From Nanobdellota archaeon (GTDB taxonomy: Archaea; Nanobdellota; Nanobdellia; Pacearchaeales; GW2011-AR1), in the NCBI GenBank assembly GCA_038044425.1, contig JBBTAB010000041.1, positions 1-37,777 on the forward strand: 37,777 bases of DNA. Direction: 5' to 3'. Shown here piece by piece: positions 20,243-25,408 of the stretch. Below the pieces are notes generated by a model. That model did not search any database, was not told where the DNA came from, and saw nothing but the letters and a program-made list of their open reading frames with translations. A program made the position numbers and the translations under genes. Positions within the stretch are counted from its first letter, which is position 1. Each line of letters opens with the position of its first letter.

Positions 20243-20315
20243 AGCCCTGTAGTACAGCGGTCAAGTATACGGCCCTCTGAAGGCTGTGACCCAGGTTCGA
20301 ATCCTGGCAGGGCTA
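20243..20315 (+). tRNA. tRNA-Gln (anticodon CUG)
   Basis: Hand-folded: acceptor AGCCCTG/CAGGGCT (A1-U72, as in archaeal tRNA-Gln), D arm GTAC-AGCGGTCAA-GTAT, anticodon arm CGGCC-CTCTGAA-GGCTG, variable TGAC, T arm CCAGG-TTCGAAT-CCTGG, discriminator A. No CCA encoded. Confidence 0.85.
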
Positions 20316-21215: not shown

Positions 21216-21276
21216 AATATAAATTTTTAGGTAGGATTTTGGGCTGCTTTTATAAATGAAACTCTTTTAAACCGGC

Positions 21277-21300: not shown

Positions 21301-21353
21301 GCCCCGATAGTTCAAAGGGTTTAACAACCTAGAACTCTCGGATAAGAAAGCAA
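21301..21353 (+). pseudogene. Decayed duplicate of the 5' part of tRNA-Glu (orphan 5' fragment)
   Basis: GCCCCGATAGTTCAAAGG is 17/18 identical to the first 18 nt of the intact tRNA (GCCCCGATAGTTCAGAGG). After a ~9-nt insertion, CCTAGAAC versus CCAAGAAT continues the similarity. No matching 3' half or anticodon-stem partner follows. Confidence 0.55.
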
Positions 21354-21501
21354 GCCCCGATAGTTCAGAGGCCAAGAATACGGCCTTCTCAAAATTTAAT
21401 TTAGGATGGCCCAGCTCGGTGAGAGTATAGGCCTAGCATCTCAATGCAAATCCTAATATTAGAATAAGGCTGTGACCCGGGTTCGAATCCCGGTCGGGGC
21501 G
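21354..21501 (+). tRNA. tRNA-Glu (anticodon CUC) with a 75-nt intron at canonical position 37/38
   Basis: Exons fold as acceptor GCCCCGA/TCGGGGC, D arm GTTC-AGAGGCCAA-GAAT, anticodon arm CGGCC-TTCTCA|A-GGCTG, variable TGAC, T arm CCGGG-TTCGAAT-CCCGG, discriminator G. The mature length would be 73 nt. No CCA encoded. Confidence 0.8.
21392..21466 (+). other. tRNA-Glu intron with a bulge-helix-bulge splice motif and an internal structured stem
   Basis: The central 4-bp helix UUCU (21386..21389) pairs with AGAA (21461..21464), flanked by 3-nt bulges CAA (21390..21392) and UAA (21465..21467) that hold the splice sites. An inner helix AAU/AUU follows. A perfect 7-bp stem TTAGGAT (21401..21407)/ATCCTAA (21450..21456) encloses the GCAT-ctca-ATGC hairpin (21436..21447). 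Confidence 0.7.
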
Positions 21502-21523
21502 TGGATACTTAATGTTCGGTTTA
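21485..21523 (+). repeat. Direct repeat copy 1: the tRNA-Glu 3' end plus 22 nt of downstream flank
   Basis: 36/39 identical to 22040..22078 and contains the core CGGTCGGGGCGT at 21491..21502. Confidence 0.85.
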
Positions 21524-21611
21524 GAAATGTGAATCTTGGTTCGAAGTATGTCTTAACTTAAAAGTAACACAAAAAAGAAAAGTTTATAAACATCTATTCT
21601 TAATCAAAAAT

Positions 21612-22010
21612 ATGAATGAAATATCACCTCTAGGAAATTATGATATTAGAAAGTTGTTTGATGCCAAAAGAGAAATGTTTGGTAGATTTGGTCATTTTAC
21701 AGGAAGAAAAGTTACTGCAACACAATTAGAGAGTTCTTTAGTAAGTCATGGACTAGCAACATTAGAAAATGTTTCTGAAATAATTGCATATCTTCAAAGC
21801 GGAAAAGCTTTAACTTATAGTCCAAAGGGAGATGGAATGGAATTAGTTAGAAATGAAGATGGAACATACAAAATGAGAAAGCATAATTTCTACAGAGATT
21901 TAAGCAGAGCAATGGGTAATATAATGGACCATGATGGACCCTTACTCACAGAAGATGAGGGAGAAAGACTCAAACAAAAGTGGGTTCAGCCTATTGAGGA
22001 TTCAGCTTAA
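21612..22010 (+). CDS. Hypothetical protein (cassette 1)
   Basis: 132-aa ORF with a TATA-like AAAGTTTATAAAC about 20 nt upstream of the ATG. No recognisable domain. Its stop lies 35 nt before repeat core 2. Confidence 0.55.
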   Translation: MNEISPLGNYDIRKLFDAKREMFGRFGHFTGRKVTATQLESSLVSHGLATLENVSEIIAYLQSGKALTYSPKGDGMELVRNEDGTYKMRKHNFYRDLSRAMGNIMDHDGPLLTEDEGERLKQKWVQPIEDSA

Positions 22011-22030
22011 CTTCTAAATTAATCCCCGTT

Positions 22031-22078
22031 CTGTAATTTGAATCCCGGTCGGGGCGTGGATATTTAATATTCGGATTA
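22031..22078 (+). repeat. Direct repeat copy 2: a degenerate tRNA-Glu 3' half plus downstream flank
   Basis: CTGTAA-TTTGAATCCCGGTCGGGGCGTGGATATTTAATATTCGGATTA equals the tRNA from the anticodon-stem 3' strand onward, with the 5' T-stem strand (CCCGGG) deleted. It is 36/39 identical to copy 1 over 22040..22078. Confidence 0.8.
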
Positions 22079-22151
22079 AGAACCAGAGGGAACATTGTTA
22101 AGTTAAAAGGAGCTAATTTTTAAAAAGTAAAAATCAGATTAGTGAATCGCT

Positions 22152-23123
22152 CTATTCAAAAACTCCGTTTGGAAGCTTGTATCCTGTAGTCTCTTCCAAT
22201 ACTAAAAAAACATCTGAAATTTTAGCAATATCAGGAAAAGTCTTTCTAAAATTGTTAATAAACTCTCTTAATTCGTTGGAGTTTTTTACTATCAAACCAA
22301 GATCATAATCCCATACCCCTCCAAGATATTTGTAATAAAAGACAATACTTTTATGCTCCCTAAAATAATTAGATAACTCTTTATCTACTTCCTCACCAAA
22401 TTTGATGAGCTTTATTTGTATGTCATACCATTCATAATCTAGCTTCTTCCAATCTAATGATATAGTATAACCAATGAAAACACCTTTATTCTCCATATTT
22501 TTTATCCTATGATTAACTCCATTAGGTGTTAATTTTACTTTTTCAGATATTGAAACCAAACTTATCCTTGAATCTTTATTTAACAATGATAAAATCTCTA
22601 AATCTTTATTATCTAACTTAAAGGGTCTGGTTTTGGCATGATTAAAGACTCTTCTTTTAACAACTCCAAACATTTTAGAAGCAAAATAATCTCCTCCGTG
22701 AAGTTTCAAAACAACATAATCCTCAATAAATTCTCCAAAATTTATTAGTAGATCATTGAGTATTTTGTCTAATTTGGCTTTTTGGGATATGACAATATCA
22801 AAAACTAAACTCCATCTTCCTGCGGAAGTTCCAATCCAGCTCATAAATTTATTTTCTTTTAAATATTCTAAGATTCTTTTTTCTGTGTCTTCTTGTAGTT
22901 TAGCTAGCTCTAAGAATACTACATAATGGGAGAGTCCAAGCAATTCCTCATTGAGAATTGTATTAAATTCTTTTATCAATCCCAATTTAATTAAGCGATT
23001 TATTTTATAGTTAACATTCTCTCTTCTTAATCTAATATTCTTTCCAATAGTGCTAATTTGTTTTCTTGAATTTTCTAACAATATTTCTAATATCTTTTTA
23101 TCATATGCATCTATTTTTATCAT
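22152..23123 (-). CDS. Tandem (duplicated) Lrp/AsnC-type transcriptional regulator (cassette 2)
   Basis: 323 aa with two wHTH units, KKILEILLENSRKQISTIGKNIRLRRENVNYKINRLIKLGLI and DLEILSLLNKDSRISLVSISEKVKLTPNGVNHRIKNMENKGVF, each followed by an effector-domain-sized segment. Confidence 0.65.
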   Translation of the reverse strand: MIKIDAYDKKILEILLENSRKQISTIGKNIRLRRENVNYKINRLIKLGLIKEFNTILNEELLGLSHYVVFLELAKLQEDTEKRILEYLKENKFMSWIGTSAGRWSLVFDIVISQKAKLDKILNDLLINFGEFIEDYVVLKLHGGDYFASKMFGVVKRRVFNHAKTRPFKLDNKDLEILSLLNKDSRISLVSISEKVKLTPNGVNHRIKNMENKGVFIGYTISLDWKKLDYEWYDIQIKLIKFGEEVDKELSNYFREHKSIVFYYKYLGGVWDYDLGLIVKNSNELREFINNFRKTFPDIAKISDVFLVLEETTGYKLPNGVFE

Positions 23124-23238
23124 TTTTTACTTATAATAGATTATGGTATATAAATTTTTAGTTTTTGTAAAATTTTACTATAAGATATTTTATATAAGAG
23201 ATATAATTTATATAATCAAGTATCGGAGGAAAATAAAA

Positions 23239-23631
23239 ATGCCATTGTGTGGATTTAACCAGAAGATGTTGGAAGGATTGGTAGCGTTCCAAGAAGGATT
23301 AGTGGAACATGGAATCCTAGAAAGATCAACGAAAAAAGGACAAACTCCAGATAGAACATTAGCCGATGAACTGAGTGATATGACTGGGTTCTTAGCTGAA
23401 ACTGGAAGAATAAAAGATCCGAAAATAAGGGAAGTTACAGAAGCTTTAACTAGATATGCAGAAGCCTTCTATAAAATAGTAGAAAGTAGAGGAGTCGATA
23501 ATTATAAGGACACAGTTAGGGCATTAAATGACTTCTATGTAAAAATGGATGATAAATTCTATCAAGAATTGGAAGGAAAGCCAGAAGATATGAGGCAATT
23601 AGCTGAATACTTAAATAAAGTAGCTGTATAG
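23239..23631 (+). CDS. Hypothetical helical protein (cassette 2), divergent from the Lrp-like gene
   Basis: The ATG at 23239 is preceded by GGAGG about 9 nt upstream. The longer track ORF from 23143 adds only a low-complexity Tyr/Ile/Lys leader, so the shorter start is preferred. No known domain. Confidence 0.55.
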   Translation: MPLCGFNQKMLEGLVAFQEGLVEHGILERSTKKGQTPDRTLADELSDMTGFLAETGRIKDPKIREVTEALTRYAEAFYKIVESRGVDNYKDTVRALNDFYVKMDDKFYQELEGKPEDMRQLAEYLNKVAV

Positions 23632-23705
23632 TTTATCATCTCTTAGACATCTTAATCAAATCCAACCAATTATTAATCCTAACCCGTAAAACTTTATACT
23701 AATTA

Positions 23706-23717
23706 CGGTCGGGGCGT
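23706..23717 (+). repeat. Direct repeat copy 3: the tRNA-Glu 3' core only
   Basis: Exact CGGTCGGGGCGT. Upstream CTAAT retains partial similarity to the T-loop region. Confidence 0.7.
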
Positions 23718-23766
23718 CCAGAACAAAAGAAGAAACATTTAAATATAAGTAAGATTAATCTTATTT

Positions 23767-23985
23767 ATGATAATTGACACAACCAAAATGAGTTCAAGGG
23801 GGCAGGTAGTAATTCCATTAGATATTCGTAAAGATATTAAAGAAGGAGATAGATTAATTGTGATTAGAAAGGGCGATGAAATAATTCTAAAAAAGTCTAT
23901 TCCCGAAATTGCCTTGCTTTCCGAAAAATCTTTGGCAAAAACATGGCTTAATAAAGATGAGGATGAAGCATGGAAAGACTTGTAA
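23767..23985 (+). CDS. mazE: AbrB/MazE/SpoVT-family antitoxin (cassette 3)
   Basis: 72 aa. SSRGQVVIPLDIRKDIKEGDRLIV is the swapped-hairpin AbrB-type DNA-binding motif. It overlaps the toxin gene by 16 nt. Confidence 0.8.
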   Translation: MIIDTTKMSSRGQVVIPLDIRKDIKEGDRLIVIRKGDEIILKKSIPEIALLSEKSLAKTWLNKDEDEAWKDL

Positions 23986-24302
23986 AAGGAGATATAATTG
24001 TCATAGATTTCCCTTTCTCAAACTTAGTCCAATTTAAACCTAGACCAGTTTTAGTTATTAAAGTTCCAAAAGGAGATGATTTAATCGTCAGCCAAATAAC
24101 CGGTTCCTCTTATGAAAAATCTGTAGAAATAAAAATAGAAAGTAAAGATTTTAGTAAAGGTAGCCTAAAGAGGGATAGTTACCTCAGATTAGACAAGATA
24201 TTTTCTATAGAAAAATCATTAATAAAATACAAAATAGGTTCCTTAAAGGTTGAAAAATTTAAAGAGATTTTAGACAGTATAGTTACTTTCTTAAAAGAGT
24301 AG
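23970..24302 (+). CDS. mazF: MazF/PemK-family endoribonuclease toxin (cassette 3)
   Basis: 110 aa. VKGDIIVIDFPFSNLVQFKPRPVLVI...IVSQITGS...SYLRLDKIFSIEKSLI follows the PemK/MazF pattern (GDI-x-x-x-[DF]...RP-x-[LV]-V-[IL]). Confidence 0.8.
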   Translation: MERLVKGDIIVIDFPFSNLVQFKPRPVLVIKVPKGDDLIVSQITGSSYEKSVEIKIESKDFSKGSLKRDSYLRLDKIFSIEKSLIKYKIGSLKVEKFKEILDSIVTFLKE

Positions 24303-24334
24303 GAACCTAAGTTTTTGGAATATCTTTAACTTAA

Positions 24335-24358
24335 GGTTTATATCTCGGTCGGGGCGTG
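24335..24358 (+). repeat. Direct repeat copy 4: tRNA-Glu T-loop-to-3'-end remnant
   Basis: GGTTtatATCtCGGTCGGGGCGTG versus the tRNA GGTTcgaATCcCGGTCGGGGCGTG, 20/24 identical. Confidence 0.75.
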
Positions 24359-24436: not shown

Positions 24437-25408
24437 ATGGATTATGCCGTAGATTTTGTACTAAAAACTATGCAGGATTTAAGTTCTTCTAAACCTGTTT
24501 TATTTCAAAGAGATGGGTCCCTATATGTTGCTTCATCTGATGGATTTGGACAAGTCAAATACGGGCTAAATACAAGACCTATAGAAATCCGAGATTGGGA
24601 AAAAAGAGAACAACCACCGGAAATTGCAGAATCCGAAGATATCTTTGAGGGGGTTAGTGGGGACGTTCGTGGAAAATTAAAAATAAGGGATAGTGAGGCC
24701 CCTTATTTAAAAGCAATCTCTTTCGGTTCTGATGATAATTCATTTACATTGGAAGATATCGCAAAAACAGCCGAACAACTTGCCGGATTGCCTGATGATG
24801 GAAAAATTCGTATGGTTTCCCATGATAGCGGTTATCATAGTCATAAATATGGGTATGCTTCTGATGGGATTGATGTTTGGATAGATAGAGCAAGAGTAAT
24901 GAACAGGGAGAGATATTTAGAATTATTAAGAAATGCGGAAGAGGGGATTATCCAAAATATTGAAGATTTAGATAAAATTGAAGATAAACAACGCATCTCT
25001 GGTGCTTATGAAAAACTACTGTTCCCAGACCGCATGATTATGACTCCTCATATGATAGTTAGTTTGCCAAGATATGGGTACTTGCATCTGCATAGAGAGG
25101 AACCAGATTCATGGACACGAATGACTAGCTTAGAGGGGGGAATCTTGCATTATTCAGAATTAAGGATTCATGATGAATCTCCTTTTGGTATAAATATTAA
25201 ATTAAATGCAAAAACTCAAAGGACAATAAGTGAAGCAAAGGAAACATTAAAAAAAATGGATGAGGAAGTAGATGCAGTAAAATCAAATATGGCAATTGCT
25301 GAAACATTTATTTCAAGAATTAATGAGGTACATAATAAAATCTGTGCAAAAGATATTGAATGGTCTAAAAGTCTAAGAAAAAGGGTAAGAGAAAAAGTAA
25401 TCGCCTGA
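24437..25408 (+). CDS. Hypothetical 323-aa protein directly after the last att-like remnant
   Basis: Long ORF with no domain recognisable by eye. His/Tyr-rich patches (HDSGYHSHKYGY, RYGYLHLHRE) and a helical C-terminal third. Confidence 0.55.
   Translation: MDYAVDFVLKTMQDLSSSKPVLFQRDGSLYVASSDGFGQVKYGLNTRPIEIRDWEKREQPPEIAESEDIFEGVSGDVRGKLKIRDSEAPYLKAISFGSDDNSFTLEDIAKTAEQLAGLPDDGKIRMVSHDSGYHSHKYGYASDGIDVWIDRARVMNRERYLELLRNAEEGIIQNIEDLDKIEDKQRISGAYEKLLFPDRMIMTPHMIVSLPRYGYLHLHREEPDSWTRMTSLEGGILHYSELRIHDESPFGINIKLNAKTQRTISEAKETLKKMDEEVDAVKSNMAIAETFISRINEVHNKICAKDIEWSKSLRKRVREKVIA

Follow-up and report, generated by a model that had tools for sequence, protein, structure and literature searches.

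We analyzed a 37.8-kb stretch of DNA from a DPANN archaeon (the window; G+C content of 34.5%) in which an intact tRNA-Glu(CUC) gene is followed by a tandem array of small gene units, each closed by a copy of the tRNA 3' end. A preliminary description, made by reading the sequence, had reported four non-random copies of a 12-mer, CGGTCGGGGCGT, and a search of the whole window bore this out. There are four copies, all on the + strand, that start at positions 21491, 22046, 23706, and 24346. The number expected by chance is 0.02 per window, and none of 100 dinucleotide-preserving shuffles reached four. A 16-mer pattern allowing up to three mismatches found the same four sites and none further in the window. 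Copies 2-4 of this 12-mer (the core) close units of 555, 1660, and 640 bp. No open reading frame (ORF) of at least 50 amino acids (aa) in the window spans any of the four cores.

Core copy 1 is the 3' end of the tRNA-Glu(CUC) gene (Table 1). This gene is missed by ARAGORN with default settings and by the Rfam gathering threshold; intron-aware ARAGORN was needed to detect it. We conclude that tRNA-Glu(CUC) is the anchor and the entry site of the array. The extent of tRNA identity differs between the copies. Copy 2 is 90% identical to positions 21482-21523 over 42 nt and extends 22 nt beyond the end of the tRNA, as had been described. Copies 3 and 4 are 71% and 83% identical, respectively, to a 24-nt frame at the tRNA end (the latter in agreement with the 20 of 24 reported previously), and share little with it beyond the core. 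The proposal that copy 2 also keeps the 3' strand of the anticodon stem was unconvincing (matches at about 5 of 8 positions).

Table 1. Positions of the tRNA, cores, cassettes, and flanking features in the window.
Feature	Position	Strand	Details
P1, tRNA-Glu 5'-half-like segment	21301..21353	+	acceptor 5' strand, D-arm with 9-nt insertion, then CTCGG; separate element directly upstream of the tRNA
tRNA-Glu(CUC)	21354..21501	+	exon 1 21354-21392, 75-nt intron 21393-21467, exon 2 21468-21501; canonical cloverleaf (ARAGORN, introns allowed)
Core copy 1	21491..21502	+	last 3 nt of T stem, acceptor 3' strand, discriminator, plus T
Gene-less piece (C1a)	21503..21549	+	head A GGATACTTAATGTTCGGTTTAG, then T-loop-like remnant GGTTCGAAGTAT at 21538-21549, where other cassettes have the core
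Cassette C1 proper	21550..22045	+	promoter-like head GTCTTAACTT..TTTATAAA, 21 nt, ATG; 132-aa ORF 21612-22010; tail with T-loop-like TTTGAATCC
Core copy 2	22046..22057	+	contigs fork here in the 20x sample
Cassette C2	22058..23705		head A 22058-22079; tandem Lrp/AsnC regulator 22152-23123 (-); 130-aa ORF of unassigned function 23239-23631 (+); type B tail from 23675
Core copy 3 with type B tail	23675..23717	+	CCTAACCCGTAAAACTTTATACTAATTA + CGGTCGGGGCGT
Cassette C3	23718..24345	+	promoter-like head, mazE 23767-23985, mazF 23970-24302, tail
Core copy 4	24346..24357	+	distal end of the array; adjoins C1 directly in contig L017
Flank gene, outside the array	24437..25408	+	323-aa conserved DPANN protein

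The gene contents of the three units were those listed in the preliminary description (a 132-aa ORF, a tandem Lrp regulator with a divergent 130-aa ORF, and a mazE/mazF pair), as judged with Pfam and PHROGs. The 132-aa protein of C1 had no family match in Pfam, NCBIfam, or PHROGs, and an exhaustive protein search returned only 3 relatives among 1.84 billion representatives. In C2, the tandem Lrp/AsnC protein has two HTH_24 matches (Pfam, 2.3e-21), and the 130-aa gene is divergent from it. We looked for C2 and its 130-aa ORF in further contexts and found the window arrangement alone. C3 is a type II toxin-antitoxin module: MazE matches PF04014 (2.6e-8), and MazF matches the MazF/PemK family PF02452 (2e-12) and the PHROG for MazF (2.4e-19). 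The two genes overlap by 16 nt. The last + strand ORFs of C1, C2, and C3 end 35, 74, and 43 nt before their cores, which is the range of 35-74 nt originally noted. Each unit in the window is filled by intact ORFs, with no space for integrase remnants. The genes around the array are housekeeping genes, including those for PheRS, RFC, FEN1, and endonuclease III.

The preliminary description had taken the array to be three self-contained cassettes. The gene contents agree with this, but the first unit does not look like a single cassette. In two other contigs (L226 and L250, below), the homologous C1 head lies directly after a core, but in the window it follows GGTTCGAAGTAT, which looks like a T loop from which the core has been deleted. 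Because the second head in C1 is preceded by GGTTCGAAGTAT and not by a core, unit 1 is probably a composite in which a gene-less piece (21503-21549) has been fused to the cassette proper (21550-22057).

We found that the order of cassettes varies among closely related strains. Exact matches to proteins of the window came from groundwater metagenomes of Hainich (wells H32, H41, H43, and H52) and from MAGs (metagenome-assembled genomes) with the label Nanoarchaeota. Related contigs come from Hainich groundwater wells H32, H41, H43, H51, and H52, and the stretches that the variant contigs share with the window are ~99.6-100% identical, with 0-4 single-nucleotide polymorphisms (SNPs). The preliminary description had named such variants as a check, and other wells do carry different cassette orders. 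Nine alternative junction types at the core represent other ARRANGEMENTS in the population, on contigs from wells H32, H41, H51, and H52. One contig from H41 (L016) reads tRNA-C1-core-C3 and is missing C2. In a second (L008), the tRNA adjoins a new unit, Z, which is followed by C1 and a yhhQ-like gene. A third (L010) is a diverged allele that reads tRNA-C1-yhhQ. In the contig from H32 (L017), C1 does not adjoin the tRNA: the tail of a further unit, X, is followed by a core, C1, another core, and the chromosomal flank, and both C2 and C3 are missing. In H52, three replicates (L022-24; 14-27x) have a unit, Y, before the mazEF cassette in place of C2, with a different flank behind. Lastly, a contig from H51 (L226) has three cores that bound a macro-domain cassette (M1) and a cassette of unassigned function (M2). 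The C1 unit was seen beside four different right-hand neighbors.

At all of the variant junctions, the aligned sequences switch exactly at the borders of CGGTCGGGGCG(T). The junction partners share only 12-13 nt, which is too short to produce de Bruijn chimeras at k >= 21. Assemblies also end at the cores. Logan contigs L011 and L012 stop at 21501, L007 stops at 22057, and contig L006 from a MAG stops at 23718. In a sample with 19-20x coverage, a contig starting at 22003 (L001) has an overlap with L007 of exactly 55 nt at core 2, the mark of a point where the assembly graph forks. Two of the new units, X and Z, lie between the tRNA and C1, on the side expected if entry occurs at the tRNA.

Some of the ends of the cassettes are standardized. 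A 43-nt tail, tail B (CCTAACCCGTAAA(A)CTTTTATACTAATTA plus the core), closes four unrelated units (C2, Y, M1, and M2). A 22-nt head, head A (GGATAYTTAATRTTCGGWTTAG), is found after five different cores and opens C1a, C2, M1, the yhhQ flank, and, behind a tRNA-Asp gene, a unit on contig L194. The tRNA-Asp bearing this last unit has the same 3' end as the tRNA-Glu core. A second head, GTCTTAACTTRAAAGTAA.., is common to C1 proper, M2, and a homologue of C1 in another species. Reading from the sequence, an ATG lies exactly 21 nt after an 8-nt TATA-like box in C1, C3, M1, M2, Z, and a unit on another contig (L250c), and also in yhhQ. This regular spacing suggests that the cassettes are probably independent, leaderless expression units.

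The same layout was found in three other DPANN species, by scanning species-representative genomes for the tRNA end, by scanning metagenomes, and by the exhaustive protein search. In a Hainich Nanoarchaeote (L061), tRNA-Glu(UUC) is followed by a 1.3-kb unit with a Fic gene that is closed by CGGTCGGGGCG. In a contig from JGI (L224; its PPDK region is 73% identical to that of the window), the unit after tRNA-Glu(UUC) has one gene, is 1.2 kb long, and ends in CTGTCGGGGCGT. The third (L250, from Logan) was located through one of the three relatives of the C1 protein. Here, a tRNA-Asp ending in CGGCGTGGGCG is followed by two cassettes, one with a kinase gene that ends in CTGCGTGGGCG and one with a RidA gene that ends in CGGCGTGGGCGT, and then by the C1 homologue with its homologous head. 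L250 therefore has the same architecture with a different core, one that matches the local tRNA-Asp. More generally, screening the 113 tRNAs in the retrieved sequences revealed exact 11-nt downstream copies of the tRNA 3' end at 7 independent DPANN loci. By a hand estimate (113 tRNAs x up to 8,000 nt / 4^11), ~0.2 would be expected by chance.

Based on these results, we favor, with somewhat better than even confidence, a model in which an enzyme acting in trans brings in, removes, and reorders small cassettes that lack an integrase, through site-specific recombination at a core of 11-12 bp derived from the tRNA end. The preliminary description had offered either extremely reduced remnants or cassettes mobilized in trans, and its interpretation is supported in part. 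The 3' end of the tRNA-Glu gene would be the entry point of a chromosomal store of cassettes. Units of 0.5-1.7 kb with one to two genes would carry a core of 11-12 bp identical to the last bases of the tRNA (the CGG of the T stem, the acceptor 3' strand, and the discriminator). Conservative recombination of core against core, presumably with the incoming unit as a circular intermediate, would insert the unit beside the tRNA, rebuild the tRNA, and leave a second core behind the unit. Repeated insertion would stack the units, with the newest adjoining the tRNA, and recombination between any two cores would remove or reshuffle units. The enzyme would act in trans, because the units encode no recombinase, and would most likely be a tyrosine recombinase whose gene lies elsewhere in the genome or on a helper virus or plasmid. 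We favor this model because the repeats are direct copies of the tRNA end, the tRNA is intact, new units lie on the tRNA side, units are lost precisely, their ends are standardized, and the core co-varies with the tRNA. The lack of any integrase or transposase in the window, and near the cassettes of L061 and L224, also speaks for it.

Several observations weigh against it. Apart from the core, the heads and tails are heterogeneous, and a 12-bp site is short for a tyrosine recombinase to bind. The decayed site at 21538-21549 in C1 indicates that decay occurs. All of the related contigs are metagenomic, with coverage as low as 2-4x for several variants. C1 (555 bp) may occur as a repeat at more than one place, namely two loci, and the C1-yhhQ contigs could then be read in more than one way. 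None of the contigs examined contained a circular cassette junction or an empty site (tRNA-core-GTGTTAAAAG, that is, tRNA joined to flank). No integrase, transposase, Cas1, or fragment of these was found in the window with Pfam, NCBIfam, and PHROGs, and no recombinase gene lay within ~20 kb on either side of the array. This agrees with the preliminary description, which had recognized no recombinase, split SSV-type integrase, or transposase in or beside the array. The scan took in ~37 ORFs of the window (30 analyzed here and the rest from precomputed hits), with Pfam run to E<=5 on ORFs without a family; it covered the window and short contigs, and a recombinase could be encoded elsewhere in the genome or on a helper element. 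One variant contig (L019) diverges without a core at window position 24330, 16 nt before core 4, and continues with a new promoter-like sequence and an ORF. Another species (L061, 6550-7121) has a mazEF pair that is 81% identical to C3, lies between GTPase and NUDIX genes, and has no cores; this toxin-antitoxin module also moves by some other route.

The main rival, which we think unlikely, is that viruses or plasmids bearing integrases inserted serially at the tRNA end and then lost genes ("gene capture"), in which case the differences between strains would be deletions between repeats and there would be no ongoing mobility. Tandem integration followed by loss of the integrase is documented in archaea (PMC8371274) and in bacterial tRNA islands (bioRxiv 10.1101/2020.12.28.424599). 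The C1-C3 and C1-flank junctions can be read as simple deletions of the window arrangement, the decayed site in C1 fits with such a history, and the different extents of tRNA identity (12, ~24, and 42 nt) are what different parental elements would leave. Yet the new units X, Z, and Y are not explicable by deletion. At least 11 units (C1, C2, C3, X/Z, Y, M1, M2, the Fic unit, the unit in L224, and L250a and L250b) are each a single intact expression unit with no integrase fragment. A history of capture and decay also does not readily explain how one 43-nt tail came to be common to four unrelated ORFs, or why arrangements vary between strains that differ by so few SNPs in the stretches they share.

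Three other explanations are less likely. The core could be a target-site duplication of fixed length, made by a transposase-like or casposase-like enzyme acting in trans with a staggered cut at the tRNA end. Indeed, the length of the identity block (11-12 bp) hardly varies among unrelated units, the block begins abruptly at CGG, and the related unit after tRNA-Asp in L194 contains an IS1595-family transposase gene. In addition, casposons target tRNA 3' ends and generate duplications of 14-15 bp. We nevertheless consider this improbable: the units lack shared termini and terminal inverted repeats (inverted-repeat score of 7.5 vs 6.9 +/- 1.3), the identity at C1 extends over 42 nt, precise loss of a unit between cores is not a transposase reaction, there is no Cas1 or transposase in the window, and the insertion sequence in L194 has its own inverted ends (seen by eye) and looks like a passenger. 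It is also conceivable that the general recombination machinery uses modules of tail, core, and head (up to ~77 nt) as short homologies. Tail B, core, and head A do provide 40-77 nt of near-identity between some junctions, and tandem integrated elements of archaea have been suggested to exchange modules by homologous recombination (PMC8371274). This seems very improbable, though, given that the C1-C3, C1-flank, X-C1, and M1-M2 junctions have nothing but the 12-13 nt core in common with their presumed parents, and homologous recombination would leave the first entry of new units beside the tRNA unexplained. Mis-assembly at tRNA genes, or mixing of related species in the metagenomes, is the explanation to which we give the least credence. 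It gains something from the metagenomic origin of all of the data, from the coverage of 2-4x for several variants, from N gaps in L008 and L022-24, and from the possibility that C1 is multi-copy. But the window arrangement is identical in independent assemblies (ENA contigs from H43, a Logan contig, and the NCBI MAG), Y-C3 was recovered at 14-27x in three replicates, junction partners share only 12-13 nt, and analogous arrays come from unrelated projects (JGI for L224 and Logan for L250).

It is possible, though we hold this tentatively and would sooner bet against it, that DPANN archaea have a dedicated cassette system, similar in function to integrons but of a different construction. Such a system would dock at tRNA-Glu and tRNA-Asp genes, use as its only common signal an 11-12 bp core that matches the local tRNA, consist of one-gene units with TATA-like boxes and common tails, and depend on an enzyme in trans that is host-encoded or of a type not recognized by our searches. 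It would let these symbionts with tiny genomes draw on a common pool of accessory genes in rapid exchange.

The preliminary description had likened the array to an integron platform. Canonical integrons and integrase-less attC clusters (CALINs) are on record from archaea, Nanoarchaeota among them (Ghaly et al. 2022, PMC9668308). The locus behaves like an integron, or, to be precise, like a CALIN. Cassettes of 0.5-1.7 kb, mostly with one gene, are arrayed in the same orientation and split by a recurring recombination site. The cargo consists of toxin-antitoxin pairs, small ORFs without known function, and enzymes of the modification or resistance type. The order of cassettes varies by strain with new units by the entry site, and the recombinase can be absent from the locus, as in CALINs. 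In contrast, the locus lacks the defining features, and in this respect the comparison did not hold. There is no IntI (which is required for a complete integron and not for a CALIN). The site is an 11-12 bp, tRNA-derived core with heterogeneous flanks rather than an attC palindrome of 57-141 nt with R and L boxes, and entry is at the end of a tRNA gene and not at attI. The cassettes appear to have their own TATA promoters rather than being expressed from the integron promoter Pc, and C2 has divergent genes.

Our direct tests of site architecture are in line with this. Attachment sites that fold like attC were considered and rejected: single-stranded DNA folds of 8 junctions were no better than those of shuffled sequences (z from -0.7 to +0.7), and there were no GTTRRRY (R') boxes at the junctions, which read ..GGGGCGT followed by GGATA, CCAGA, or GTCTT. 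Palindromic sites at circular junctions fared no better. For 9 cassettes, the inverted-repeat score between head and tail was 7.5 for cognate pairs and 6.9 +/- 1.3 for non-cognate pairs, and terminal inverted repeats were not found as a general feature of the cassettes. Hairpins before each core can be seen by eye (CCGTAA..TTACGG and others), and a structural role for them had no statistical support from folding. Matches to Rfam families in the array were only noise at E<=10.

Formally, the locus is a tRNA-targeted tandem integration site, without the integrase-bearing elements that define the known examples. In tRNA-targeted islands (Islander-type islands, the tycheposons of Prochlorococcus [bioRxiv 10.1101/2020.12.28.424599], and the ssrA site of Dehalococcoides [PMC3146451]), as here, the tRNA is intact, displaced copies of its 3' end are direct repeats, older units are pushed outward, integrase-less cargo lies between partial tRNAs, and the population is heterogeneous. 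Those elements are several kb long and carry, or once carried, a tyrosine or serine recombinase. Here, in contrast, the units are 0.05-1.7 kb, unrelated ORFs have standardized ends, and no integrase or integrase fragment was found at any of four loci. Archaeal integrated elements and "gene capture" (She et al. 2001, 2002; PMC8371274) likewise involve tRNA 3' ends as attachment (att) sites, tandem integration, and foreign genes that are kept after excision is lost. In SSV-type elements, however, the int gene is split across att, leaving intN and intC at the borders, whereas no ORF crosses a core in the window, and the ORFs at the borders had no similarity to integrases. The duplication length, which ranges from 9 to 42 nt among copies across loci, is not fixed as it is for casposons and transposons that duplicate their target, and the general terminal inverted repeats and the Cas1 or transposase of such elements are missing from the window.

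Other known elements depend on an enzyme in trans. CIMEs (cis-mobilizable elements) and other att-flanked satellites (PMC5704250) have functional att borders and no recombination genes, are thought to be moved by the integrase of a related element, and accrete in tandem. Our units similarly have att-like cores on both sides and no recombination module. Unlike CIMEs, which derive by deletion from identifiable, adjacent integrative and conjugative elements, they have no known parent or helper and are an order of magnitude smaller. Three patterns were used to scan IMG/VR for a helper element: core plus head A (3 matches), tail B plus core (0), and a degenerate head A (0). None of the matches was relevant; the sole AT-rich one is due to chance and falls in a T4-like phage, within a gene for a helicase. 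Near the cassettes of L061 and L224 there was no integrase or transposase, and the precomputed Pfam matches of the downstream genes included no recombinase.

The Xer-dependent modules (pdif modules of Acinetobacter plasmids and IMEX; PMC6449649, PMC13141974) are the best precedent for small, integrase-less modules, many of them with toxin-antitoxin or accessory genes, that a recombinase encoded by the host shuffles between replicons, acting in trans at short sites. The sites themselves differ. A pdif site is 28 bp (XerC site, spacer, XerD site), and successive sites alternate in orientation, whereas the cores are direct repeats of a tRNA end. In a comparison with the dif architecture, only the junction of the tRNA end with head A gave a weak 9-6-9 dyad (GAATCCCGG-TCGGGG-CGTGGATAC; arms matching at 6 of 9 positions), and the other junctions had none.

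The preliminary description was not aware of such a platform being described for archaea. This needs some qualification, since archaeal integrons and CALINs (PMC9668308) and tandem integration with integrase loss (PMC8371274) are known. For tRNA-core arrays in DPANN archaea, we found no description in the literature searched, and the review PMC8371274 does not contain the terms DPANN or Nanoarchae-.

If our favored model of cassette exchange at the tRNA core is correct, it would provide a concrete mechanism for the flux of accessory genes in DPANN archaea within one aquifer population. To our knowledge, these archaea have very small genomes, depend on hosts, and have few known routes of gene exchange. 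The cargo across units includes toxin-antitoxin, Fic, macro-domain, kinase, RidA, and regulator genes. The model raises the questions of which enzyme recombines cores of 11-12 bp and how the core tracks the local tRNA across species. If instead the array reflects plain decay of serial integrations, it nonetheless preserves at least three captures at a single tRNA, cleanly and in a form that can be dated.

We also considered whether the genes next to the array are part of the system. The product of the 323-aa flank gene has 47 homologues (34-57% identity) across Nano-, Woese-, and Pacearchaeota, in contexts that are non-syntenic and free of tRNAs. Its AlphaFold model is confident (pLDDT 90, pTM 0.88), and it had no match in Pfam, to PDB sequences, or to PDB folds; the modeled protein may have a new fold. 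A hidden recombinase found no support in these data, and most simply this gene is chromosomal flank. In the H41 contigs, a yhhQ-like (Vut_1) transporter gene (L008 4466-4672 and L010 2778-3020) follows the array and replaces C2, C3, and the 323-aa gene, despite ~99.9% identity over the 4 kb upstream. We rejected the idea that yhhQ is itself a cassette: relatives have it as an ordinary gene of the chromosome that is not next to tRNA-Glu. The C1-yhhQ contigs could be the result of a rearrangement between two tRNA-anchored arrays or of an assembly path through a repeated C1.

Some variation lies outside the cores. Another contig (L013) diverges at window position 21272, upstream of the tRNA promoter and P1, and continues into an ORF beginning MSKDNLKIEYIDVST. 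This break and that of L019 near core 4 indicate that other rearrangement processes therefore act at the locus. The tRNA-Glu intron (21393-21467) has 3-4 SNPs between strains in which the 600 nt upstream and the 555-nt C1 are identical, making it a local hot spot of variation. An attempt to detect horizontal spread of C1 from SNP patterns failed for this reason: the intron is itself the hot spot, and the 610 nt upstream are invariant.

The L194 unit (L194 100-1000), which follows a tRNA-Asp with the same core and head A, holds the IS1595-family gene with its own inverted ends. Insertion sequences therefore use the cassette region as a landing pad, too. The Fic cassette (L061 4320-5626) has a perfect 12-bp subterminal inverted repeat, with TTAGTGAGAATC starting ~20 nt past the core on the tRNA side and GATTCTCACTAA ending ~22 nt before the distal core. 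It is the only one of 9 cassettes with such a repeat.

Three of the downstream copies of tRNA 3' ends (exact over 11-21 nt) close gene-less inserts of 57-115 nt after tRNA-Ile or tRNA-Thr genes in other DPANN MAGs (L082 686-763, L125 1902-1998, and L131 2965-3100). These may be empty or collapsed units of the same kind.

The P1 segment is 94% identical to the 5' end of tRNA-Glu over 18 nt. Similar segments adjoin tRNA-Glu upstream in three DPANN species (window 21301-21353, L061 4151-4208, and L082 1467-1515) and were not present at six other tRNA-Glu loci. They follow the pattern GCCCCGATAGTTCAAARGGT..ACCTAGAACT.YCGG, which corresponds to the acceptor 5' strand, a D-arm with an inserted hairpin, and a CYCGG end. 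P1 could be the fossil of an integration that used the 5' part of the tRNA, or it could have a function, as a leader or as a small RNA. The tRNA-Glu, tRNA-Ile, and tRNA-Asp genes of DPANN archaea examined here commonly have introns, of 38-149 nt. Finally, a tRNA-Gln(CUG) gene (20243-20315) lies 1.1 kb from tRNA-Glu(CUC), and both halves of the two tRNAs are 78-88% identical. The same pairing of tRNA-Gln and tRNA-Glu is also found in a Woesearchaeota contig (L133).

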